Below are positions 7,098 through 40,987 of a DNA stretch of 64,000 nucleotides, piece after piece (positions within the stretch are counted from its first letter, which is position 1; the number at the start of each line of letters is the position of its first letter). Below the pieces are notes generated by a model. That model did no database searches, was not told where the DNA came from, and saw nothing but the letters and a program-made list of their open reading frames with translations. The DNA lies in IMG/VR virus record IMGVR_UViG_3300041955_000884, positions 43,198-107,197 of that record; one strand, 5' to 3'. The DNA is from a virus. Made by a program: the position numbers and the translations under genes.

Positions 7098-8570
7098 ATG
7101 GCCGCTATCGAAATCATCCACGGCGATTGCCTCGCCATCCTGCCGACGCTGCCGGCGGACAGCTTCCACGCCATCGTGACCGACCCTCCCTACGGCTTGG
7201 AGTTTATGGGCCGGGCTTGGGATTCGTTCTCTGACGCGCCGCGCGCCGTGCCTGGAACCGGCGGCCGACAGGCGCCGTTTGCCGTCCACTCGACCGCGAA
7301 CTGGCAGACAGGCGCTGGCTTCTCCAAACCGGGCATCGGTGAGCGCGAGACGCCCTGGCCGTCCTTCACTGGCAGCAACGATGAGTTCGGTGGCGCAAAC
7401 CCGACATGCGCCACCTGCGGCGGCCGAGCGAGGGGCAAGCGGAAGTGTGCTTGTGCCGAACCTGATTGGCGCGTGAAGGGCGCGGCTCCCGACCGCAACT
7501 ACGGGCGACAGCGCCAGATGCAGAATTTCCAGGCGTTCAACGAGGCGTGGGCACGCGAAGGTCTGCGCGTCCTCAAGCCCGGCGCCCACATGCTCGCCTT
7601 CGGCGGCACGCGCACCTATCACCGGCTCGCCTGCGCCATCGAGGACGCCGGGTTCGAGATACGTGACGCGATCATGTGGCACTACGGCTCGGGCTTCCCG
7701 AAATCGCATGATGTCGAACGGTCGATTGCGAAATGCACATGCCAGATGCCGGGCCGGCATTTTGGTCGCGGTTTGCCGCCGCCAGATGAGCGGCAGCCCG
7801 AGGACCACATCTGCCATGTGACTCCGGAGTCGGAGCCGTGGGGCGCCTTCGGCACTGCGCTCAAGCCGGCGACCGAGATTATCTGCGTGGCGCGCAAGCC
7901 GCTCGTCGGCACAGTCGCGGCGAACGTGCTGGCGCACGGATGCGGGGCGTTGAATGTTGACGGGTGCCGCGTGCCAATCGACGCCGACGCCGACGCGTCG
8001 CAGCTCAGGACGATGCAGCGTGGCCAGCGCATTGACGATACCAACGGCCAGACGTGGGGCCTGTCGAAGCTCGCCGCCGACGAGCCGCAAGTGGTGCGCC
8101 CAGATGGCCGCTGGCCCGCCAACCTCATCCACGATGGCAGCGATGAAGTGCTGGCGCTGTTCCCCGAGAGCGACGGTTGCCAGCCGCACGCTGTGAACTC
8201 GCGGAACGAGCAATACGACGGCTGGGGCACAATCACCAACAAGCACGGCGAGACAATCGGATACGAGGGCGCCGGCTCCGCAGCGCGGTTCTTCTATACT
8301 GCCAAGGCCGACAAGCAGGACCGCCTCGGCTCGAAGCATCCCACCGTCAAGCCCGTGGACCTGATGCGCTACCTCGTCCGTCTCATCACGCCGCCCGGCG
8401 GCCGCGTCCTGGACCCATTTGCTGGCAGCGGCACCACTGGCATGGCCGCGCTCGCGGAGGGATTCGACTGCACGCTCATCGAGCGCGAGGCCGAGGCCGT
8501 CGCGGATTGCCGCCGCCGGGTCGCCCACGTTCGCGGGGATGACACGCCGCTGTTCGCTGGGCCGGAGTGA
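7098..8570 (+). CDS. DNA methyltransferase (N6-A/N4-C, beta class)
   Basis: IVTDPPY near the N-terminus; HPTVKP and LDPFAGSGTTG near the C-terminus. Confidence 0.9.
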   Translation: MAAIEIIHGDCLAILPTLPADSFHAIVTDPPYGLEFMGRAWDSFSDAPRAVPGTGGRQAPFAVHSTANWQTGAGFSKPGIGERETPWPSFTGSNDEFGGANPTCATCGGRARGKRKCACAEPDWRVKGAAPDRNYGRQRQMQNFQAFNEAWAREGLRVLKPGAHMLAFGGTRTYHRLACAIEDAGFEIRDAIMWHYGSGFPKSHDVERSIAKCTCQMPGRHFGRGLPPPDERQPEDHICHVTPESEPWGAFGTALKPATEIICVARKPLVGTVAANVLAHGCGALNVDGCRVPIDADADASQLRTMQRGQRIDDTNGQTWGLSKLAADEPQVVRPDGRWPANLIHDGSDEVLALFPESDGCQPHAVNSRNEQYDGWGTITNKHGETIGYEGAGSAARFFYTAKADKQDRLGSKHPTVKPVDLMRYLVRLITPPGGRVLDPFAGSGTTGMAALAEGFDCTLIEREAEAVADCRRRVAHVRGDDTPLFAGPE

Positions 8571-32410: not shown

Positions 32411-33376
32411 TCACGGTGCTCCCGTAACACTAACCGCCTTCGTGCCGAGGAGGCGCCAAGCGCCCTGCCAGAAGGCGCAGAGCTCGAGCAGGTAGTCTCC
32501 CGCTGGCAGCGCGAACACAGCCTCGCCAGCCGTGCCGTACGCCGCGGCGTAGCTGATGCCGCTCACCGGCCTTCCGTTCCAGTAGCCCTTCCCGGCGGCG
32601 TCGAGCACGTTGACGCATGACCAGTCCCCGCCGGTGTCCGTCCAGACGAGCATCAACAGGCCGAGGATAGCGGAGCCGACGGTTATGGTTCCGGTCGGGT
32701 AGCCGAGCGCGGCCCCCACGATGGGATCCAGCGTGGCGAACATCGCCTGAGCCATCAGGTCGTAGCCGGATTGATTCGGATGGATGCCACTCCAGACGTT
32801 GAACATCTCAGAGTAGGACAGATCGGCGTGCCATGCGGCGCCCATCGCCTCCGTCTCGGCGTTGAAGTCAACGAGCGAAAGGCCAGCCGCCTGAGCGGCG
32901 CCGCGAACCATGGCCGCTTTGTCGTCGATGACGGCCGAGGCCCACGACGCATCGACCGCGTTCGGCGTCTCCAGCACGAGGCGCTTGCCAGCGGCCTGCG
33001 TGAGACGGACGATCTCGGCCAGCGGCGCCTGTACAGCCGCCGGCTCGTCGTTCATGCCGAGCGACAGCAGGACGACCGAGGCTGGAGTCGCGGCGACATA
33101 TGCCAGCCAGGAGTTCGCCACGCCGCCGGTGCCATCGAGCCAGTTCTGGAAAGTCGTTCCCGATACCCCGTTGTTGTTGACGACCACCAGCGGCCCGTAT
33201 TTCGCCTGGAGAAGCGCCCCAAGACCAGCCGGTGCTGGCGTCGCCACGACCGAGGAAACCGTGCCGTCGGCGCCGGGGGCCGGACCCGTGCTGGCGCCGT
33301 CGAACGTCAGCCCGAAAACCGTGCTGTCGCCATTGACGTCAACGACGAGGGGACTCGATGCGCTAGATTCGGTCAC
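32411..33376 (-). CDS. SGNH/GDSL hydrolase
   Basis: GDST, GVSG, GMND and GIHPNQSGY blocks. Confidence 0.8.
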   Translation of the reverse strand: MTESSASSPLVVDVNGDSTVFGLTFDGASTGPAPGADGTVSSVVATPAPAGLGALLQAKYGPLVVVNNNGVSGTTFQNWLDGTGGVANSWLAYVAATPASVVLLSLGMNDEPAAVQAPLAEIVRLTQAAGKRLVLETPNAVDASWASAVIDDKAAMVRGAAQAAGLSLVDFNAETEAMGAAWHADLSYSEMFNVWSGIHPNQSGYDLMAQAMFATLDPIVGAALGYPTGTITVGSAILGLLMLVWTDTGGDWSCVNVLDAAGKGYWNGRPVSGISYAAAYGTAGEAVFALPAGDYLLELCAFWQGAWRLLGTKAVSVTGAP

Positions 33377-33978
33377 GGAGCCAACTCCACGTTGTGATAC
33401 AGCCACGAAGCAAAATCCGCGCGTGTCTCGCTGTCAAGGAACTCCAGCCCGGCCCTGAGCAGCTCCGCCGTCGTCGGCTGCCGCGGCGGCTTCAGCGGCC
33501 GCAGGGGGGTGCCCTTCTTGCCGGAGTAGTTCGCTGGCCGGTCACGCTTCTCGACGTTGCACCTCACGCAGCAGCTCAGGATGTTGTCCCACACCGTCTG
33601 GCCGCCAGCCGCCCGCGGGATAACGTGGTCAAACGTCAGATCCTCGCTCTGGAACCGCTCGCCGCAGTACTGGCAGCGGTAGCGGTCCCGGAGGAGGATG
33701 GAGCGGCGACAGAACTTCGGCGCCGCATTGATTGGCGCGTACGACCGGAGCGCCACCACCTTCGGCACATGAATCGTGGTCGACGGCGAGCGGAACACCT
33801 CCGGCCACTCGTCCACGACGGTCACCGTCTCCTTGAAGACGGCGCGGATGGCTTCCTCGGGGCCGATAAGCGAGAGCGGCCAGGTACTTAACGGCCGAAA
33901 GTCGCTGTTCAGCACGAGACAGCGGCGCGCGTGGCGGTCGCGTCTATCAGGCTCAGCAGTGGCGACGGCGGTGCTCAT
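33373..33978 (-). CDS. HNH endonuclease (McrA-like) directly after the tRNA array
   Basis: LVLNSDFRPL, RDRYRCQYCG, LTFDHVIPRAAGG, CVRCNVEK. Confidence 0.9.
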   Translation of the reverse strand: MSTAVATAEPDRRDRHARRCLVLNSDFRPLSTWPLSLIGPEEAIRAVFKETVTVVDEWPEVFRSPSTTIHVPKVVALRSYAPINAAPKFCRRSILLRDRYRCQYCGERFQSEDLTFDHVIPRAAGGQTVWDNILSCCVRCNVEKRDRPANYSGKKGTPLRPLKPPRQPTTAELLRAGLEFLDSETRADFASWLYHNVELAP

Positions 33979-33989
33979 GCGCGGCCTCA

Positions 33990-34006
33990 GCGGCGAATAC
34001 GTCCAC
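33990..34006. repeat. Downstream arm of the inverted repeat bracketing the tRNA array
   Basis: GCGGCGAATACGTCCAC, complementary to 39644..39660 (12-bp perfect core). Confidence 0.75.
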
Positions 34007-34018
34007 TATCGCACGGAA

Positions 34019-34093
34019 TGGTGCTCTCGGGCAAGAATCGAACTGCCGTTTACCGCTTACGAGGCGGTAGTCCTGCCACTGAACGACGAGAGC
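34019..34093 (-). tRNA. tRNA-Thr(CGT)
   Basis: Acceptor GCTCTCG/CGAGAGC, loop CTCGTAA, encoded CCA. Confidence 0.92.
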
Positions 34094-34096
34094 GTA

Positions 34097-34125
34097 TTGA
34101 GCCGGTTAACTGGCTGCGTTATACT
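34097..34125 (+). promoter_or_regulatory. Sigma70-like promoter for the antisense HNH gene (leaderless)
   Basis: TTGAGC-N17-TATACT, 6 nt before the ATG at 34132. Confidence 0.6.
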
Positions 34126-34131
34126 GCGCCT

Positions 34132-34575
34132 ATGCCCCACCGCACCAAAGAAGAAAATGTCGCTGGCGTCCTAGCATGGCGGCGCCGCGCGAAGCTGCGA
34201 CTTATCGAGGCGTTCGGTGGCGGCTGCGGCATATGCGGATATAACCGCTGCGCCGCTAACATGGCGTTCCATCATCTTGATCCGTCTCAGAAGGGCGTCG
34301 GATTTGGAAGCGCTCAGTCTCGCTCCTGGGCGAAAGTGATACACGAGGTCAGAAAGTGCGTGATGCTGTGCCACAACTGCCACGGCGAATATCATGCCGG
34401 CCTTATCACTGACCTTTCCGCTTGCCCGCGCTTCGATGAAACGTGCGCCACCTACAGCACCCGACCAACGAAAGGGAAGACGCGGAGAACTGGAGGATTG
34501 GGAGGGAATCGAACCCGTCCTATGACGCAGATTAAGAGCCTGCCGGCCTCACCAGAGTGCCAACCAATCCGCTAG
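34132..34575 (+). CDS. HNH endonuclease inserted antisense in the tRNA array
   Basis: GGGCGICGY...FHHLDP...CVMLCHNCHGEYH. Confidence 0.85.
   Translation: MPHRTKEENVAGVLAWRRRAKLRLIEAFGGGCGICGYNRCAANMAFHHLDPSQKGVGFGSAQSRSWAKVIHEVRKCVMLCHNCHGEYHAGLITDLSACPRFDETCATYSTRPTKGKTRRTGGLGGNRTRPMTQIKSLPASPECQPIR
34491..34570 (-). tRNA. tRNA-Lys(CTT)
   Basis: GGATTGG/CCAATCC, loop CTCTTAA, U73, CCA. Confidence 0.85.
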
Positions 34576-34652
34576 TGGTGCATGTCCCGAGATTCGAACT
34601 CGGCCTGTGCGGGATTTGAAGCCGCCGCCTCCTGCCTCTGGGCTAGACATGC
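34576..34652 (-). tRNA. tRNA-Leu(CAA), short variable loop
   Basis: GCATGTC/GACATGC, stem GCGGC/CCCGC, loop TTCAAAT, A73, CCA. Confidence 0.7.
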
Positions 34653-34656
34653 GAAC

Positions 34657-34728
34657 TGGCCTCGCCGCCCGGATTCGAACCGGGAAGCCCAACCTTCGGA
34701 GGGTCGGGTGCAGTCCATTGCCGGCGAG
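34657..34728 (-). tRNA. tRNA-Arg(CCG), atypical compact fold
   Basis: CTCGCCG/CGGCGAG, 7-bp anticodon stem, loop CTCCGAA, CCA. Confidence 0.8.
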
Positions 34729-34732
34729 AAAC

Positions 34733-34803
34733 TGGTGCCCCGTGCAGGGATTCAACCTGCCGTCTTTGGCTTAGAACGCCTAGGCCGTCGCAGCGGACGG
34801 GGC
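34733..34803 (-). tRNA. tRNA-Arg(TCT), atypical compact fold
   Basis: GCCCCGT/ACGGGGC, loop GTTCTAA, CCA. Confidence 0.75.
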
Positions 34804-34808
34804 GAGCA

Positions 34809-34881
34809 TGGACCTCCCGGGACGAATCGGACGCCCTCATCGAGTTTCGTAGACTCAAGTCCGCAATCCAGCGGCGGGAGG
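34809..34881 (-). tRNA. tRNA-Arg(ACG), atypical compact fold
   Basis: CCTCCCG/CGGGAGG, 6-bp anticodon stem, loop CTACGAA, CCA. Confidence 0.8.
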
Positions 34882-34885
34882 AATT

Positions 34886-34960
34886 TGGGGGCGCGTGCGG
34901 GGGTCGAACCCGCCTCTCTCGGGTGAAGGCCGAGGCATCTCGCCGGAAATGTAACGCGCC
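34886..34960 (-). tRNA. tRNA-Glu(TTC), C33
   Basis: GGCGCGT/ACGCGCC, loop CCTTCAC, CCA. Confidence 0.85.
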
Positions 34961-34965
34961 GAAGT

Positions 34966-35040
34966 TGGTGGAGCTGACCGAAGTCGAATCGGTGTTACGA
35001 GACTGCCAGCCTCGCGTCCTTGCCACTGAACGACAGCCCC
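34966..35040 (-). tRNA. tRNA-Ala(GGC)
   Basis: G3:U70 present, loop CTGGCAG, CCA. Confidence 0.92.
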
Positions 35041-35115
35041 GAAGCTGTGGTCGGCGTTTGATGCCTATATCCGCCGACACGCCCCATACATGGCAAGGGC
35101 GGCGCCTCGTCAAAC

Positions 35116-35190
35116 TGGTGAAGGGCGTTGGAATCGAACCAACCGTCTCCGCCATGTCAAGGCGGTGCTCATCCGATAAGCTGGCCCTCC
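35116..35190 (-). tRNA. tRNA-Val(GAC)
   Basis: GGAGGGC/GCCCTTC, loop TTGACAT, CCA. Confidence 0.92.
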
Positions 35191-35262
35191 GTACCTCGCC
35201 GTCGAATCGAACGACGGTATCCGCGGTGTGAACGCGGCGCCCTGCCATTGAGCGAGCGAGGC
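35191..35262 (-). tRNA. tRNA-Val(CAC), CCA not fully encoded
   Basis: GCCTCGC/GCGAGGT, loop TTCACAC; ends A-C and abuts the next tRNA. Confidence 0.88.
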
Positions 35263-35266
35263 AAAG

Positions 35267-35341
35267 TGGTCGGGGATGCAGGAATTGAACCTGCGTCGCC
35301 GCCTTCCAAGGGCGGAACCTGGGCCACTAGGCTAATCCCCG
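35267..35341 (-). tRNA. tRNA-Pro(TGG)
   Basis: C1:G72, A73, loop CTTGGAA, CCA. Confidence 0.9.
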
Positions 35342-35345
35342 TAGA

Positions 35346-35416
35346 TGGCGCCCCCGGCTGAAATCGAATCAGCATTCCTTGGCTTAGGAAGCCAGGGCCG
35401 CTCCATCGGCGGGGGC
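35346..35416 (-). tRNA. tRNA-Arg(CCT), atypical compact fold
   Basis: GCCCCCG/CGGGGGC, loop TTCCTAA, CCA. Confidence 0.8.
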
Positions 35417-35420
35417 AATC

Positions 35421-35498
35421 TGGTCAGCGTGCGGTGATTCGAACACCGGCTCTCGTGCGCCCGAGGCACGCGCTTTGGCCTGGCTAAGCTACACGCTG
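35421..35498 (-). tRNA. tRNA-Pro(CGG)
   Basis: CAGCGTG/CACGCTG, loop CTCGGGC, CCA. Confidence 0.92.
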
Positions 35499-35505
35499 TC
35501 GAAGC

Positions 35506-35581
35506 TGGCGCCCCAGACGGGTTCCGACCCCGCCAACATCGGCTTGACAAGCCGAGACCCCCGCCAGGGAGAATCTGGGGC
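35506..35581 (-). tRNA. tRNA-Asp(GTC)
   Basis: GCCCCAG/CTGGGGC, G73, loop TTGTCAA, T-loop GTCGGAA. Confidence 0.8.
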
Positions 35582-35585
35582 AATC

Positions 35586-35667
35586 TGGAGGACGGCGGAG
35601 GTGACGATCCCCTTGCGGCCGGATTAAAGGTCCGGTCCAGCGCCTCGCTGGTATACGCTCGCCGTCC
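35586..35667 (-). tRNA. tRNA-Lys(TTT), divergent (C33, enlarged D region)
   Basis: GGACGGC/GCCGTCC, stem CCGGA/TCCGG, loop CCTTTAA, T-loop ATCGTCA, CCA. Confidence 0.7.
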
Positions 35668-35672
35668 GAAAG

Positions 35673-35747
35673 TGGTTGCCGCACGCGGTACTGCCCCGCG
35701 AGCCTCTCGCTTATCGGGCGAGCGCACGACTTTCATGCTCTACGGCA
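35673..35747 (-). tRNA. tRNA-Ile(GAT), C33
   Basis: TGCCGTA/TGCGGCA, loop CCGATAA, T-loop GGCAGTA, CCA. Confidence 0.82.
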
Positions 35748-35748
35748 A

Positions 35749-35833
35749 TGGTGAGTTGGTGTGGTGCTGCCCCACGCGCCCGAAGGCGAAGGATTTACAG
35801 TCCTCCTGCCGGAGCTGCCGGCTTTACCAACCC
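35749..35833 (-). tRNA. tRNA-Tyr(GTA)
   Basis: Loop CTGTAAA, variable arm GCC-TTCG-GGC, T-loop GGCAGCA, CCA. Confidence 0.85.
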
Positions 35834-35839
35834 GTGAAC

Positions 35840-35910
35840 TGGAGCCGCGTCTCGGTGTTGCGCCGAGCCTCCGTCCATACCAAGGACGGGTGCAGACTGC
35901 TGCGCGCGGC
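35840..35910 (-). tRNA. tRNA-Thr(GGT), compact fold
   Basis: 6-bp stem CCGTCC/GGACGG, loop TTGGTAT, D arm GCAG-CAGT-CTGC, CCA. Confidence 0.78.
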
Positions 35911-35913
35911 AGA

Positions 35914-36001
35914 TGGTGGAAGGCCCCGAGCACGATTCGGACACCTTTCGGTGCGCACGGTTTAGCAGACCGGCCCCGCAACCTTACGGGCTGTGCCTTC
36001 C
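35914..36001 (-). tRNA. tRNA-Ser(GCT)
   Basis: GGAAGGC/GCCTTCC, loop CTGCTAA, long variable arm, CCA. Confidence 0.85.
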
Positions 36002-36007
36002 AGAAAG

Positions 36008-36097
36008 TGGCGGACGGCGGCTAGTGCTGCCCTGCAAACCCGTTGGGGTCTCATCGGTTTTCGAGGCCGAGCCGCAGACTGCTGCGGGTCACCGTCC
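36008..36097 (-). tRNA. tRNA-Ser(CGA), 8/4 fold
   Basis: 8-bp acceptor GGACGGTG/CGCCGTCC, loop CTCGAAA, long variable arm, G73, CCA. Confidence 0.82.
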
Positions 36098-36209
36098 ATG
36101 TGCGCTCCAGCGCACTGTATCGCGGCTAATGTGCTCTTGAGAGCCGATTTTGCGGGCGCCGCATTCGCTGCGGTCGTTCAAGACTGGAGGCGGAGGCCAG
36201 CCCCCATAG

Positions 36210-36297
36210 TGGCGGAGAGCGGGCGCGCACGATGCCCATGCCTTGCGGCACCAGCCGGGTTCAAACCGGCGGTCGGAACCTTCCGACTTCACTCTCC
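36210..36297 (-). tRNA. tRNA-Ser(TGA), 8/4 fold
   Basis: 8-bp acceptor GGAGAGTG/CGCTCTCC, loop TTTGAAC, long variable arm, G73, CCA. Confidence 0.85.
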
Positions 36298-36301
36298 GTA
36301 A

Positions 36302-36389
36302 TGGCGGGCGGCGGGCGCAGTCGAAGCCCTGGCCTTTCGGCCTCATCGCGCTTCCAACGCGAGCCGGCGACCCCGCCGGTTCACCGCCC
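36302..36389 (-). tRNA. tRNA-Ser(GGA), 8/4 fold
   Basis: 8-bp acceptor GGGCGGTG/CGCCGCCC, loop TTGGAAG, long variable arm, G73, CCA. Confidence 0.85.
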
Positions 36390-36393
36390 AAAC

Positions 36394-36478
36394 TGGTAGC
36401 CCACGAAGGAGTTGCACCCTCACGCCGCGATGGCACGAGTTCCTAAGACTCGCGTGTCTGCTGTTCCACCAGTGGGCC
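36394..36478 (-). tRNA. tRNA-Leu(TAG)
   Basis: Loop CTTAGGA, long variable arm, A73, CCA. Confidence 0.9.
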
Positions 36479-36483
36479 TAACT

Positions 36484-36567
36484 TGGTACGCCCGGGGAGA
36501 GTTGCACTCCCACGTCATGCGACACAACGCCCTCAACGTTGCGCGTCTGCTGTTCCGCCACGGGCGC
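36484..36567 (-). tRNA. tRNA-Leu(GAG)
   Basis: Loop TTGAGGG, long variable arm, A73, CCA. Confidence 0.9.
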
Positions 36568-36568
36568 T

Positions 36569-37078
36569 CTATTTCGGTGCTGGCCAAATGTCGGCCAGGG
36601 TCGGACGACGCTCGCCGAGGACGAGCGACAGCCTGGATTTCGAGTGCGCTGGCGCTAGGCGGTCGAGCCGTTGCGCAGGCTGGGGCACATTGGCCAACGT
36701 CGCCTCCGAGATCGGCTCGGCATATTGGCCAATCTTGTGCAGGCCCCAGGACGCCGCGACGTGGAATTCGGGCTTGCGGGAGCCAGACGGACCCGGCTTC
36801 GCCACTGCTCTGACGCACGCCACCGCGCCCCAGCAGTGGCCGCAGGCGGCGCGGAGGTTGTTGCAGTGCCCGCAGACGAGGTGGTGCATTCTCGTGCCCG
36901 TGGGATACTCGTAGCGCCTCGTGCGCGGCAGGATGTGGTCCCGCGTGGCGCTCCGCTTGGCGTGGCCCTCGGGCAGCATCGGGTCGCCGCACTGGGGGCA
37001 GCAGACGGTCTCGCCCATCGCCTTCGCGAGGTCGAACAGGAGCAGCTTCCTCTTCGTGAAGCCCTGCGGCGCGCTCAT
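36569..37078 (-). CDS. HNH-like endonuclease within the tRNA array
   Basis: CPQCG...ATRDHILPR...VCGHCNNLR; leaderless promoter TTGCCT-N16-TAGGCT upstream. Confidence 0.75.
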   Translation of the reverse strand: MSAPQGFTKRKLLLFDLAKAMGETVCCPQCGDPMLPEGHAKRSATRDHILPRTRRYEYPTGTRMHHLVCGHCNNLRAACGHCWGAVACVRAVAKPGPSGSRKPEFHVAASWGLHKIGQYAEPISEATLANVPQPAQRLDRLAPAHSKSRLSLVLGERRPTLADIWPAPK

Positions 37079-37116
37079 GGCGGAAGCCTACCACGCTCGG
37101 CGCCGGAGGCAAGATG

Positions 37117-37200
37117 TGGTGCCGGCGGCAGGCATCGAACCTGCACGCTGCGCGCGGCCCGGTTTAAGCGGGCTGGGTCTACCGATTCCCCCACGCCGGC
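37117..37200 (-). tRNA. tRNA-Leu(TAA)
   Basis: GCCGGCG/CGCCGGC, loop CTTAAAC, long variable arm, CCA. Confidence 0.9.
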
Positions 37201-37203
37201 GAT

Positions 37204-37278
37204 TGGTGGCGCTAGGGGGATTTGAACCCGCCCTTTCCCGGTTGAGAGCCGAGCGGCCTGCCAATAGCCGATAGCGCC
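37204..37278 (-). tRNA. tRNA-Glu(CTC)
   Basis: GGCGCTA/TAGCGCC, loop CTCTCAA, CCA. Confidence 0.9.
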
Positions 37279-37282
37279 GAAA

Positions 37283-37357
37283 TGGAAGCGGGTGCCCGAC
37301 TCGAACGAGCGTGAAGGAGGTCAAAGCTCCCCGTCCTGGCCGCTGAACGAACCCGCC
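37283..37357 (-). tRNA. tRNA-Gln(TTG)
   Basis: G1:U72 weak first pair, loop CTTTGAC, CCA. Confidence 0.88.
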
Positions 37358-37362
37358 GCGAT

Positions 37363-37467
37363 TGGTAGGCGATGACGGTGCCGACCCGTCTCGAACGCCG
37401 CCAGTGCGTAAGGGACCGTCGCCCCCTGGGCCGTCGCCCGCGTTCTGCCCAGCCGGGGCAATCGCCT
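37363..37467 (-). ncRNA. tRNA-like RNA with the anticodon loop replaced by a 41-nt branched domain
   Basis: Acceptor AGGCGAT/ATCGCCT-A-CCA, D arm and T arm intact, stem GAACGC/GCGTTC closing three hairpins. Confidence 0.75.
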
Positions 37468-37505
37468 GCCGAGTTTCTAGCACGTCACATCCGATACCGC
37501 AATAG

Positions 37506-37579
37506 TGGAAGCCGACCAAGGTGTCGAGCCTTGCCCGACGAGCTTCAGAGGCTCGCGTGCCCAGCCGGGGCGATCGGCC
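37506..37579 (-). tRNA. tRNA-Gln(CTG), compact fold
   Basis: GGCCGAT/GTCGGCT, 1-nt linker, loop CTCTGAA, CCA. Confidence 0.8.
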
Positions 37580-37582
37580 GAA

Positions 37583-37661
37583 TGGTGCTCCTGGCCGCGA
37601 TTCGAACGGGCGACCCCCGGGATACAAAGCCGGTGCTCTGGCCAGACTGAGCTACAGGAGC
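37583..37661 (-). tRNA. tRNA-Thr(TGT)
   Basis: GCTCCTG/CAGGAGC, canonical D arm, loop TTTGTAT, CCA. Confidence 0.9.
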
Positions 37662-37662
37662 T

Positions 37663-37739
37663 TGGGGTGACATGCCGGTACCGCCCCGGCCCAAACTGGG
37701 CTCACAACCCAGCGCAATCGCTTGCCTGCCCATGTCACC
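37663..37739 (-). tRNA. tRNA-His(GTG) with G-1:C73
   Basis: G-GTGACAT/ATGTCAC-C-CCA, loop TTGTGAG. Confidence 0.88.
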
Positions 37740-37751
37740 ATACGCAATCCA

Positions 37752-38130
37752 TCCCGTCGCATCTATGCTCGCCTCGGTGTTACCCGTGGCTAGCCGTATC
37801 GCACGGCGAACGGGAGCCGGGGCTACCGTCTGTTTCAACGGTGTCGCCGGAGAGGTTTCGAGCCGGCATCGCTATGCTACGGCGGCATCGAAGACGGCTT
37901 GCCGCCGGCGGAGGGGTTAATCCCGCGCATCACCACCCTGGGTCGGGCTCCGCAATCCCCTGATGACTTAGCCGCTTCGCCGCCGGTTCCATGCCCAGCG
38001 CCGCTCGAAAGCTCCCTGCGGGCTAGCCTCGGCGCGCATCCGAAGCCAAGCTGGGCCAGCCTTAGAACCACCGCAGCGCTGGCCCGTCGCCCGCGTGGAA
38101 GGCTTCGCGTCTGTCCGCGATGCCGCAGGA
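37752..38130 (-). ncRNA. Candidate ~380-nt structured RNA between tRNA-Cys and tRNA-His
   Basis: Ends pair (TCCTG-CG-GCATC / GATGC-GA-CGGGA); many hairpins; no credible ORF. Confidence 0.55.
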
Positions 38131-38133
38131 AGG

Positions 38134-38209
38134 TGGAGAAGCGCCACAGAGTCGAACTGCGTGATGCGGGGTTGCAATCCGCCACCCAAGGCCGTCGGGT
38201 TCGCGCTTC
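38134..38209 (-). tRNA. tRNA-Cys(GCA)
   Basis: U73, loop TTGCAAC, CCA. Confidence 0.88.
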
Positions 38210-38214
38210 AATCT

Positions 38215-38288
38215 TGGCAGGGGCGTGAGGAATTGGACCCCATCTAGCTGGGTTGGAGCCAGCCGTGCTGCCGTAACACTTCGCCCCC
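38215..38288 (-). tRNA. tRNA-Trp(CCA)
   Basis: G73, loop CTCCAAC, CCA. Confidence 0.88.
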
Positions 38289-38292
38289 AAGT

Positions 38293-38367
38293 TGGCTCCA
38301 GAGGCAGGACTTGAACCTGCAACCTCACGGTTAACGGCCGTTTGCTCAGCCATTGAGCTACTCTGGA
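38293..38367 (-). tRNA. tRNA-Asn(GTT), C33
   Basis: TCCAGAG/CTCTGGA, G73, loop CCGTTAA, CCA. Confidence 0.92.
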
Positions 38368-38486
38368 AAACTCGTCTGGCGCTCGGCCCTCTCGGGCCAG
38401 ACTTTCCGGGCTACCCACCAGCGCGTTGCCATGGCTCGCTGGCCTCTATCCGTTATGGACTCGGGGTGACCGAGTCACGCCATGCT

Positions 38487-38562
38487 TGGAGCGGGATGCC
38501 GGGGACGATCCGAGCTTCACTGGTTTGGAAGACCAGCACAGTTACCGAACTGCAAATCCCGC
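38487..38562 (-). tRNA. tRNA-Gly(TCC)
   Basis: GCGGGAT/ATCCCGC, U73, loop CTTCCAA, CCA. Confidence 0.87.
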
Positions 38563-39137
38563 GAAATGGTGCCAGCGCCTGGTTTCGCGCCAGGGTCTTC
38601 GCTTTTTCGGAGCGACGCTTCCACTAGGTTAGCTTCGCTGGCCATTGGCAGGGAAGTCCACGCCTTGCCGAGCTTGATGCGGCTTATCATGTCCTCCGTC
38701 ACGCGAAAACTTGTTGCTATCGAACGGCCAGTTCGGCCAGATGCCAGGAAGCGGCGAATCTCATGCACATCACGCTCCGACAGCTTAGCGTTTCCATTTG
38801 ACGCCCCCACGGAGGGCGGCAGGTTGCCCTTCGGGCGACGCCCCTTCCTGGCACTGTCCCGCATATTTTCGGCGTTCGTTCCGAGCCACAGGTGACGCGG
38901 ATTGCAGCAGGGCGGGTTGTCGCAAGAATGGCAGACGCAAAGGCCGCAGGTCGGTCCCTTCGCTATCTCGTAAGCGACGGCATGTGCCCGCCGAGAGCGG
39001 AGCGTTGGCCTGCTTTGCTTGAACCGACCGTACCCGTCATCGTCAATCTGGCGAGTCCACGGCCAGCACTCGTCAGGCCCGCGGATGTCAACCTTTGACC
39101 AAAAGCGCGCAATCGCCTTATCGTCGTGAATAGCCAT
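38517..39137 (-). CDS. HNH homing endonuclease with C-terminal HTH; the frame runs through tRNA-Phe
   Basis: RFWSKVD...ECWPW...CHSCDNPPCCNPRHLWLGTNAENMRD; SD GAGGAG. Confidence 0.88.
   Translation of the reverse strand: MAIHDDKAIARFWSKVDIRGPDECWPWTRQIDDDGYGRFKQSRPTLRSRRAHAVAYEIAKGPTCGLCVCHSCDNPPCCNPRHLWLGTNAENMRDSARKGRRPKGNLPPSVGASNGNAKLSERDVHEIRRFLASGRTGRSIATSFRVTEDMISRIKLGKAWTSLPMASEANLVEASLRKSEDPGAKPGAGTISRDLQFGNCAGLPNQ
38567..38642 (-). tRNA. tRNA-Phe(GAA), C33
   Basis: GCCAGCG/CGCTGGC, loop CCGAAAA, T-loop CGCGAAA, CCA. Confidence 0.87.
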
Positions 39138-39235
39138 ATCGGCCGTCTCCTCGGCTGGCGTGGTCAGGACCGCCGGGGCGTTCACAGCGCTCCGGCGGCC
39201 CGAGATTTCTAGTCGAAATGTCCAGCCGAAGCAAT

Positions 39236-39307
39236 TGGTTGCAGGGGAGCGAGTCGCACGCTCTGTGGAAAATTTATGAGACTTTCTGGCCTCTGAGGCT
39301 CCCTGCA
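39236..39307 (-). tRNA. tRNA-Met(CAT), compact fold
   Basis: TGCAGGG/CCCTGCA, 1-nt linker, 6-bp anticodon stem, loop CTCATAA, CCA. Confidence 0.75.
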
Positions 39308-39312
39308 ATAAC

Positions 39313-39386
39313 TGGTGGGCGCGCGACGAATCGGACGCCGGTCAAGCCTTTATGAGAGGCTCGCTCTTCCATTGAGCTACACGCCC
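39313..39386 (-). tRNA. tRNA with CAT anticodon (probably Ile2/lysidine; Met not excluded)
   Basis: GGGCGTG/CGCGCCC, loop CTCATAA, no initiator features, CCA. Confidence 0.82.
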
Positions 39387-39399
39387 GTCGCGTGGAATT

Positions 39400-39474
39400 T
39401 GGAGCTGACGCCCGGTACCGCCCCGGGTGATACTGATTGGCAACCAGTCCCGCAACCTTTCGCGGACCGCCAGC
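39400..39474 (-). tRNA. tRNA-Gly(GCC)
   Basis: U73, loop TTGCCAA, T-loop GGCGGTA, CCA. Confidence 0.83.
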
Positions 39475-39485
39475 TAAGACATGAA

Positions 39486-39531
39486 CGAATCTCGCCCGAC
39501 CTGGCGACGACACGGCCAGGTCGGGCATTCG
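39486..39531. other. Strong hairpin spacer between tRNA-Ala and tRNA-Gly
   Basis: Perfect 12-bp stem GCCCGACCTGGC/GCCAGGTCGGGC plus CGAAT/ATTCG. Confidence 0.6.
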
Positions 39532-39536
39532 TGAAA

Positions 39537-39611
39537 TGGTGGAGGCGCGGATAGTCGAAATCCGAGACAGCAATCTTGCAAGGATAGCCCGCTGGTCCGC
39601 AGCTCGCCCCC
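39537..39611 (-). tRNA. tRNA-Ala(TGC), compact fold; first tRNA of the array
   Basis: G3:U70, 1-nt linker, loop CTTGCAA, CCA. Confidence 0.83.
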
Positions 39612-39643
39612 GTCGGGCCGCTTGGCAGGCGGCCCGTAGTCAT

Positions 39644-39660
39644 GTGGACGTATTCACAGC
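39644..39660. repeat. Upstream arm of the inverted repeat bracketing the tRNA array
   Basis: GTGGACGTATTCACAGC, complementary to 33990..34006. Confidence 0.75.
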
Positions 39661-39663
39661 CTC

Positions 39664-39701
39664 AAAGAACAAAAGCCCCCGAGAGTTTCCTCCGGGGGCT
39701 T
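39664..39701 (-). terminator. Intrinsic terminator (attenuator) in front of the tRNA array
   Basis: AAGCCCCCG-GAG-GAAA-CTC-T-CGGGGGCTT followed by TTGTTCTTT. Confidence 0.88.
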
Positions 39702-39757
39702 GGTCGTGTACGCTTCCACAGTCAAAGCCAGAAGCGGTTACAAGGCCAAGCCCTCGG
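39692..39757 (-). promoter_or_regulatory. Antiterminator hairpin, mutually exclusive with the terminator
   Basis: CCGAGGGCTTGG (39757..39746) pairs 11/12 with CCAAGCCCCCGG (39703..39692); inner TGTA/TACA and CGCTTC/GAAGCG. Confidence 0.75.
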
Positions 39758-39860
39758 CGTTCGGCTGATGCGTCGCGGACTTCCCGCCCAAGCTACGCCG
39801 CACGGTGGGTTTTATGCCGCGTCGTTCGGCGTAGCCAGGAAAGGAGGTCCAGAGTGACAT
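39738..39860 (-). CDS. Putative 40-aa codon-sampling leader peptide MSLWTSFPGYAERRGIKPTVRRSLGGKSATHQPNAEGLAL
   Basis: ATG 7 nt after the -10 box; 31 distinct codons in 40; stop lies inside the antiterminator 5' arm. Confidence 0.75.
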   Translation of the reverse strand: MSLWTSFPGYAERRGIKPTVRRSLGGKSATHQPNAEGLAL

Positions 39861-39867
39861 CGCTGCC

Positions 39868-39897
39868 CTTATGCGGGCGGCGGCGGGGGCGTGTCAA
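39868..39897 (-). promoter_or_regulatory. Sigma70-like promoter of the tRNA operon
   Basis: TTGACA-N18-CATAAG. Confidence 0.65.
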
Positions 39898-40342
39898 GCC
39901 CTGAATCGCACCGGAGCGGCGCGTTCGCGATTTCGAGGAGGACGGTGGCGTGGCATGCTTGGTCCAGGCGGCACCAGCAGGCGAGGTCCTTGCCGCGAAG
40001 TTCGCGGCGCACATCATCAATGGTTGTCGCGTCCATGCTGGGAATTTTTCCTTTTGGCCATGGGAGCGCAACAGGAATCCACGCGCCTTCCTTGGCGAGC
40101 ATCGAGCGGAACGCAGCAACCGCCAGTTGGGCGTCCATTGGAAAGCGCTGCCCATTCTGCATGCGATCAGAATGAACGACGAACGGATTGCCCCACTTCG
40201 ATCCGCGTCCGACGTAGACGGCTCCCTCTGGCATCCGCCAGCCCTTCGTCCGGCGCCGCTGGATTCGCCGTGGAGCGAAGGCGCAGACGCGGGCCTCACG
40301 GCAGCGCGCTGGCCCTGGGCAGTAGTCGCATGCCTCGGTCAT
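39869..40342 (-). CDS. DUF4326-like protein
   Basis: RIQRRRTKGWRMPEGAVYVGRGSKWGNPF...LRGKDLACWC...CHA. Confidence 0.8.
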   Translation of the reverse strand: MTEACDYCPGPARCREARVCAFAPRRIQRRRTKGWRMPEGAVYVGRGSKWGNPFVVHSDRMQNGQRFPMDAQLAVAAFRSMLAKEGAWIPVALPWPKGKIPSMDATTIDDVRRELRGKDLACWCRLDQACHATVLLEIANAPLRCDSGLDTPPPPPA

Positions 40343-40941
40343 CAATCCGCCGCCTGGGCGAACAGCGGCGCGTCGCGACGCCGGAACACCGTGACGACCC
40401 GGAAGCGGTGGTTCGTGCTCTTCACCATGCCGATGACGGCTTCCATCTCGAAGGCGTCCTTGCGATACATCGGTAGCACTTGGTCGAGCCAGACGATGTG
40501 CGTTCCTGGCGCCAGCCGCCCCAAGGCGCTCATCACCGCATTTCGCTTCACCATCGTCGTCCGGTAGCGCTCGGCGTCCTCGACGGAGTAGGGCGGGTCG
40601 GCCAGAACAAGGTCGTAGCGCTCCAGTGGCACGCGCTCCAGCGTCTGGGCGTCGTCCACGAACGTCGGCGCCAGCTCCGCGTTCACGTCCACGGTATCGC
40701 CGGGCATCGCGGCAAGGTCCACGCGGCCAGAGAACAGGTGCAGGAGGCGCTCCTTGTCGGGGAACAGAGCCTTGATTCGTCGAAGATATCCGGCCGGATA
40801 GCCGCCGTAATAGGCCGACTTCACGCGGTAGTCGTTCCCCATAATCCAGGTGCCGACGACGCGGCCGTCCTCGCCGATAAACAGGCTCCGCGGAAAGCCC
40901 GTGGCGCGGACGTAGTTGTCGATGCGCTCCTGCCAGTTCAT
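40342..40941 (-). CDS. Adenine methyltransferase-like protein
   Basis: YYGGYP, LHLFSG, VLADPPY. Confidence 0.7.
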   Translation of the reverse strand: MNWQERIDNYVRATGFPRSLFIGEDGRVVGTWIMGNDYRVKSAYYGGYPAGYLRRIKALFPDKERLLHLFSGRVDLAAMPGDTVDVNAELAPTFVDDAQTLERVPLERYDLVLADPPYSVEDAERYRTTMVKRNAVMSALGRLAPGTHIVWLDQVLPMYRKDAFEMEAVIGMVKSTNHRFRVVTVFRRRDAPLFAQAAD

Positions 40942-40987
40942 GGCAGCACCGCCCTGCCAATGGTCTCCGAACGCGCCATGGGCGGCG

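Follow-up and report, generated by a model that had tools for sequence, protein, structure and literature searches.

Large tRNA arrays are common in phages, and they raise the question of how kilobases of untranslated RNA escape Rho and how such RNA is matured. Here we consider this question for an uncultured wetland phage, IMG/VR virus record IMGVR_UViG_3300041955_000884 (107,197 bases), whose last 64 kb (64,000 nucleotides (nt)) form the window that we analyzed and in which the phage positions below are counted. Its minus strand carries a tRNA array of 5.6 kb (34019..39611), running from tRNA-Ala (39611..39537) to tRNA-Thr (34093..34019), in which ARAGORN identifies 25 tRNAs and Rfam more, with small open reading frames (ORFs) and an HNH_3 gene interspersed. 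Two complementary sequences bracket this array, one in the leader of its transcript (the 5′ arm) and one in the trailer (the 3′ arm), and the 5′ arm abuts a boxA of the type found in rRNA operons (rrn). These elements suggest that the phage probably transcribes and closes its tRNA block much as cells handle their rRNA precursors, through a boxA-bearing leader and a closing leader-trailer helix.

Complementary arms at both ends of the array

The 5′ arm (39644..39660, minus strand) begins at the base following boxA and lies 33 nt before tRNA-Ala, in a single-stranded stretch between two strong hairpins. The 3′ arm (33990..34006, minus strand) follows the last tRNA by 12 nt; 11 nt separate its end from the start codon (33978) of the downstream HNH endonuclease gene, and 1 nt separates it from the ribosome-binding region of that gene. 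Direct inspection of the sequence and a listing of inverted pairs agree with what the first-pass annotation of this DNA had reported: both 17-mers lie at these minus-strand positions and pair at 16 of 17 of them, with 15 Watson-Crick pairs, one G-U and one U-C mismatch, around a perfect core of 12 base pairs (bp; 39655..39644 with 34006..33995). This 12-mer occurs at two sites only, the arms themselves, in the whole record, and both arms are unpaired in local folds. A further extension of the helix through UACGG/CCGUG, also proposed in the first-pass annotation, has a strong local hairpin (39636..39614) as its competitor and does not form when leader and trailer are folded together. A search of Rfam found no known RNA family at the arms.

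To gauge how often such pairing arises by chance, we drew 20,000 random pairs of 59-nt windows with the same spacing from the same genome. A perfect run of at least 12 nt appeared in 0.075% of these pairs, and a 17-position helix with at most one mismatch in 0.135%. More permissive measures are unexceptional: the duplex energy is equalled by 39% of random pairs, and the local DNA alignment score over 200 nt by 8%. When the real leader and trailer are cofolded, they form the helix without losing either local hairpin, with a gain of -19.3 kcal/mol compared with -6.9 ± 2.9 kcal/mol for 200 shuffled trailers, none of which did as well. Taken by itself, at about 1 in 1000 after a reading of the whole window, the complementarity is suggestive, not decisive.

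Looser copies of the core are scattered through the window, where 11 matches with two mismatches are found against 2.7 expected, none of them inside the array; this excess probably reflects codon structure. A motif scan of IMG/VR with the core and the conserved outer bases returned 48 unrelated single matches and no recurrent element.

An rrn-type boxA abuts the leader arm

The 11-mer TGTTCTTTGAG (39661..39671, minus strand; core 39670..39662) is an rrn-type boxA. It directly abuts the 5′ arm, the first tRNA starts 50 nt after it, and both the exact 11-mer and its 9-mer core occur once in the 107-kb genome. About one match to the 9-mer G[TC]TCTTTGA is expected per genome when both strands are counted; by our own arithmetic, the core would land in this 59-nt spacer, on the strand required, with a chance of about 3 in 10,000. 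The described boxA consensus, GYTCTTTAANA, is gamma-proteobacterial (PMC5725501), and a literature search with the boxA letters as a string returned primers only.

We compared the phage leader with those of its likely hosts. Relatives were gathered by portal alignment (80 IMG/VR, 80 metagenome and 24 genome loci, among hundreds of portal relatives), and because such relatives occur in metagenome-assembled genomes (MAGs) of Beijerinckiaceae, Stellaceae, Micropepsaceae, Rhizobiales and other Alphaproteobacteria, the hosts are likely members of this group. As a reference we used 19 16S genes with their flanks (L257-L275) from the order of the Beijerinckiaceae MAG. The same boxA core is present 157-257 nt before 16S in 15 of the 19 leaders, three of which share the first 10 nt of the phage boxA, and a hairpin ends within 4 nt of boxA in 13 of the 15. 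A conserved helix begins about 10 nt after boxA in these host-order loci; its 5′ strand has its partner 94-162 nt beyond 16S. Their leaders have a recurrent layout (a hairpin, boxA, about 10 nt often containing TGAATA, and some 25 purine-rich nt that make up the 5′ strand and pair with the trailer), and the 19 loci make a ready reference set for alphaproteobacterial leader-trailer helices. We also considered whether the phage had captured a host leader. This was excluded, as only the 10 nt of boxA are common to the two; because the rest of the phage leader is unlike host leaders, the boxA is a shared motif rather than a captured host fragment.

The surrounding leader follows the same order. 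On the minus strand of the region, one site alone is strongly promoter-like, a sigma-70-type promoter (39868..39897) with a -35 box TTGACA (39897..39892), an 18-nt spacer and a -10 box CATAAG (39873..39868). Downstream of it, both minimum free energy and centroid folds contain a GC-rich hairpin (39673..39701, minus strand) that ends 2 nt before boxA, in the position of a boxB, and the 94-nt leader fold has a z-score of -4.4. A second hairpin with an 8-bp GC stem (39614..39636, minus strand) separates the 5′ arm from the first tRNA; it is found in the local fold and retained in the leader-trailer cofold. The boxA thus stands in a transcribed leader, behind a promoter and a hairpin and ahead of structured RNA genes, the 5′ strand of the helix begins within about 20 nt of it, and the partner strand lies just past the RNA genes.

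Finding boxA changes how the upstream hairpin is read. The first-pass annotation had called it an attenuator terminator, and the hairpin (39701..39673) is indeed strong. Only four U residues follow it before boxA starts, however, a consensus scan did not call it as a terminator, and a contig from an RNA library reads through it. It more likely occupies the boxB position, with the supposed U tract being largely boxA itself.

Two further observations concern this transcript. A 40-codon ORF (39860..39738) lies upstream of the leader hairpin. Within the array, a plus-strand GGCTTGACA promoter-like box (35541-35565) mirrors the -35 region of the array promoter (39876-39900) and could be an antisense promoter.

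Predicted boxA-adjacent helices elsewhere among viruses

Five tRNA arrays of cultured phages (phiCbK, Atu_ph07, RHph_TM30, Phosso and Bxz1) have no boxA within 800 nt upstream of the first tRNA, and the best complementary runs between their flanks reach 5-8 nt. Because these control arrays lack both, neither boxA nor the bracket is a general property of tRNA arrays.

Pairing next to boxA does recur elsewhere. We scanned IMG/VR for the boxA core with a following TGAATA, as in the hosts and this phage, with no complement required, which returned at least 120 stretches, 108 of them testable. Among the matches listed, 15 of the 108 have a perfect 13-18-nt downstream complement to the 51 nt after boxA, compared with 3 of 108 for a control arm, and 12 of the 15 arms start 9-16 nt after the start of the boxA core, as in this phage. 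The arm sequences differ between boxA loci.

One of these loci also carries tRNAs. In a phage contig (L373, 4434-5092 reverse; 7122-7780 in reversed orientation), boxA lies within a cluster of at least 10 tRNAs and a permuted transfer-messenger RNA of the alphaproteobacterial type. A 16-nt arm that begins 18 nt after the boxA start finds its complement 625 nt downstream, with 15 Watson-Crick pairs and one G-U, and the helix encloses tRNA-Ala and tRNA-Cys. The class of boxA-adjacent helices is broader than tRNA arrays. In a set of AT-rich viral contigs (L297, L307, L337, L340, L344, L346, L357, L378 and L384), an rrn-type boxA together with the bases behind it is complementary over 15-30 bp to a site 0.3-2 kb downstream, boxA itself often taking part in the pairing. 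Each helix encloses one ORF of 67-271 amino acids and no Rfam family. From their sequences, these loci look like an undescribed class of boxA-led, helix-bracketed single-gene cassettes, and such single-ORF helices may work differently from the one considered here.

The array among its relatives

At 107 kb, the phage is larger than complete relatives of the same portal family (G003-G005), which measure 60-64 kb and have no tRNAs. The closest relative (G001; L083/L084), with a portal 89% identical, is collinear with the window and has a single tRNA-Met where the phage has its array, directly preceded by a promoter of the same type. Neither boxA nor either arm was found in G001. Between shared genes, the interval measures 13.9 kb in the window and 7 kb in G001. 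An ORF of 169 amino acids inside the array (36569-37078) is nonetheless syntenic in the array-less G001, at 55% identity, and because the two share it, the array grew in place around older genes and did not arrive as one clean insertion. Other homologues of this ORF were found on short contigs only.

No homologous array was found in GenBank phages or among the portal relatives (80 from IMG/VR, 80 from metagenomes), and the flanking proteins had no match in IMG/VR. A different, partly cut tRNA cluster is present on the opposite strand of one relative (L137). In searches of GenBank phages (megablast, blastn), the sole match was a DUF4326 domain. It forms the C-terminal part of the gene upstream of the array promoter (39869-40960, minus strand) and shares 77-80% DNA identity with many Mycobacterium and Gordonia phage genes, a likeness that contrasts with the likely alphaproteobacterial host.

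The phage itself is present, nearly unchanged, in public runs from peat, wetland, lake and soil. Contigs of a wetland metatranscriptome run (X11; 33800-39950) cover the leader and the tRNA-rich parts, and leave the ORF-rich parts at 34212-34623, 35654-36271 and 38538-39155 uncovered. DNA runs cover nearly all bins that lack X11 cover, with one DNA run uncovered at 38538-38743. This pattern hints at real transcription of the leader and tRNA parts, although contig data are no proof of it and the parts without RNA cover are evidence of nothing. At 38126-38537 (tRNA-Trp, Asn and Gly), depth rises 10- to 40-fold in all four runs with many variant letters, probably through placement of other organisms' tRNAs on these genes.

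A proposed boxA-tethered leader that closes the array

In cells, rRNAs are flanked by leader-trailer helices of 25-40 bp, and in Enterobacteriaceae the 5′ strand of such a helix contains boxC, 18-19 nt downstream of boxA (PMC10250234). In the published model, boxA and NusB hold boxC at the RNA exit channel of the polymerase until the trailer emerges and pairs (PMC10250234), with the RNA between boxA and polymerase looped by Nus factors (PMC5725501, PMC4807359).

By analogy, transcription of the array would start at the sigma-70-type promoter (39897), and the nascent leader would fold the GC hairpin and then expose boxA. Host NusB-NusE would bind boxA as in rrn operons, and with NusA, NusG and SuhB joining, the polymerase would become a Rho-resistant antitermination complex fit for 5.6 kb of untranslated RNA. 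As boxA rides with the moving polymerase, the following 17 nt, the 5′ arm, would be kept close to the RNA exit channel as the tRNAs are looped out. Once the 3′ arm emerges, 12 nt after the last tRNA, it could pair with the 5′ arm in vivo, so that a leader-trailer helix closes the array. This helix probably marks the array ends for a double-strand RNase (RNase III) and would separate the array from the downstream HNH message.

We consider it reasonably probable that this RNA-level, rrn-operon-like reading of the array is right. The long-range stem of the first-pass annotation, which had been likened to those of rRNA operons, gains strong, independent support from the genome-unique rrn-type boxA that abuts its 5′ arm behind a hairpin, and loses on length, being shorter than 25-40 bp. 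Several further points weigh against the reading. With 16 of 17 positions paired and a 12-bp core, the helix is shorter than expected of an rRNA-type stem or of a good RNase III substrate, and the extensions that might lengthen it compete with local hairpins. Contigs from the RNA library pass through both arms without a break (39400-39847 and 33952-34163), and therefore an uncut precursor or carried-over DNA exists. Covariation lends no support: the closest relative, G001, is without array, boxA and both arms, and the arms are invariant in population data. Positions 10-11 of the phage boxA are GG, where the host-order consensus G[TC]TCTTTGA[CA]A has CA or AA, and most other boxA-adjacent helices enclose a single ORF, not tRNAs. 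Finally, RNase P, by cutting at the first tRNA, would detach the leader well before transcription reaches the trailer, and pairing hence depends on the proposed tethering; tethering of boxA to the polymerase would answer this objection to a 5.6-kb stem.

More tentatively, and with doubt outweighing confidence, the findings can be joined into a single picture. Phages may hijack host rRNA antitermination as an RNA looping device, in which boxA holds the leader over 5.6 kb, the helix closes the array, and a double-strand RNase releases it with a cut that also sets expression of the homing endonuclease. The locus would then belong to a wider, undescribed phage family that brackets small tRNA groups (L373) or single genes (L297, L307, L337, L340, L357 and others). 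If true, the phage borrows the host complex for rRNA transcription and chaperoning, tRNA supply is linked to control of an adjacent homing endonuclease, and the locus would offer a natural test of the rrnTAC looping model, on a substrate that is non-ribosomal and exceeds 16S rRNA in length more than threefold.

Alternative explanations

The arms could be complementary by chance and have no joint function, with boxA antiterminating alone or being the U-rich tail of a terminator. A perfect match of 12 bp is modest, given that the 7.5-kb region contains 57 inverted pairs of at least 12 nt, including a perfect 14-nt repeat (33863-33876 / 35704-35717), longer than the core, with one arm in the HNH gene, the other in the ORF region of the array and no apparent role. 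The permissive energy and alignment measures, the five arrays without a bracket and the lack of demonstrable conservation all fit coincidence, and since the whole window was screened for anything notable, a 1-in-1000 match does not decide against it. Coincidence would nevertheless have to bring two independent rare features (about 1e-3 for the complement and 3e-4 for boxA) together base to base in the order and spacing of rrn leaders. It would also have to account for a cofold gain above all 200 shuffles, and for the other viral contigs in which the arm begins at a matching distance from boxA. We consider it unlikely. The arms might instead serve mainly the HNH endonuclease gene, which lies outside the helix (33373..33988, minus strand; Shine-Dalgarno GAGG at 33988..33985, ATG at 33978; Pfam HNH_5 1.5e-15, HNH 1.9e-13). 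Free-standing phage homing endonuclease genes are often silenced by RNA structure over their ribosome-binding sites. The nearest phage homologues of this gene (39% identity) are free-standing HNH genes that do not lie beside tRNAs. An RNase P-released leader piece with boxA, the 5′ arm and the hairpin could pair in cis or in trans with positions -12 to -28 of the HNH message, blocking or licensing translation or triggering cleavage, and enclosure of the array would be incidental. Both arms are locally single-stranded, no promoter or terminator was found between the last tRNA and the HNH gene, and Nus-boxA loops can repress downstream translation (PMC5725501). The first-pass annotation had placed the helix on the translation start region; the 3′ arm does end 1 nt before the Shine-Dalgarno region, but the helix leaves out both the Shine-Dalgarno sequence and the start codon. 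At the genome's other endonuclease genes, moreover, no such complement to the leader is present, the 12-mer occurring only twice, and the arm abuts boxA as a strand of an rrn leader-trailer helix does. That the pairing mainly controls the HNH gene is quite improbable in our view, although a role centred on this gene fits the data and may be one part of what the pairing does.

The arms could also act on DNA, as protein sites, as crossover sites for inversion, or as the terminal inverted repeats of a mobile tRNA cassette with a TGAG target duplication, and the first-pass annotation had named a DNA-level role as the alternative, to be checked in reads for inversion or excision. The arms are inverted at the two array ends, the 12-mer is unique to them, TGAG abuts the outer side of both, and tRNA array units with an HNH gene are reported at unrelated sites in mycobacteria (PMC12803027). 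Yet no serine or tyrosine recombinase (resolvase/integrase) was found in the 107-kb genome, nor a transposase domain among the array ORFs tested. As DNA, only 15 of 17 positions match, the outermost worst and the inner 12 bp best, and the motif is not recurrent in IMG/VR. No empty site was found either, and the array-internal ORF shared with G001 (36569-37078) speaks against one clean insertion. In four runs, every contig that spans an arm is in the reference orientation, with no joint and no variant at the arms, although contigs can miss rare forms. A single 4047-nt skip in one soil run, of low likeness and joining two tRNA-like places, was not counted. The target duplication itself was excluded, one TGAG being the end of boxA and the other part of the HNH ribosome-binding site. 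The array ends thus have the marks neither of a transposon cassette nor of an invertible segment, and we regard a role at the DNA level as very improbable.

Comparison with known systems

Polycistronic phage RNAs such as those of the T4 tRNA cluster and the T7 early region are matured by host RNases, with RNase III cutting local intergenic stems in T7. These stems are local hairpins, unlike the leader-trailer pairing proposed here. In the nut sites of lambda, boxA and boxB act with the N protein and Nus factors, and no long-range helix closes the transcript. The likeness to the array would lie in a phage boxA that recruits host Nus factors to the phage's own transcript and alters the polymerase; in lambda, however, boxA precedes boxB and the phage N protein is required, whereas here the hairpin precedes boxA, as in rrn. 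No N-like protein came up in this phage, although no search aimed at one was made. In the literature, we found no description of a boxA or a leader-trailer helix across a phage tRNA array or cluster.

Units of tRNA arrays with an embedded HNH gene have been described in mycobacteria, plasmids and phages, at unrelated genomic sites (PMC12803027). The array studied here resembles these in its size, its coverage of nearly all amino acids, its internal HNH gene and its mosaic origin. That description deals with which genes the units contain and where they lie; leader signals and flanking complementarity are not part of it.

The closest parallel is the rrn operon. In E. coli, the Nus-factor antitermination complex transcribes the rrn operon, and RNase III cuts its 16S leader-trailer helix (PMC10250234, PMC4807359, PMC5725501). 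The E. coli leader (boxB-boxA-boxC) shares with the phage leader a promoter, a hairpin, boxA and, no more than about 20 nt further on, the 5′ strand of a long-range helix. In both cases the other strand follows shortly behind the final structured RNA gene, and what the helix encloses is highly structured RNA that is not translated. Alphaproteobacterial 16S leaders and the phage have an identical boxA core. The two differ in that the phage helix encloses at least 25 tRNAs and small ORFs over 5.6 kb instead of one rRNA, measures 16-17 bp instead of 25-40 bp, and has no ribosome assembly to serve; outside boxA, itself deviating at positions 10-11, the phage has no sequence similarity to host leaders or trailers. 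What is new here is the probable use of an rrn-type leader and closing helix on a phage tRNA array.

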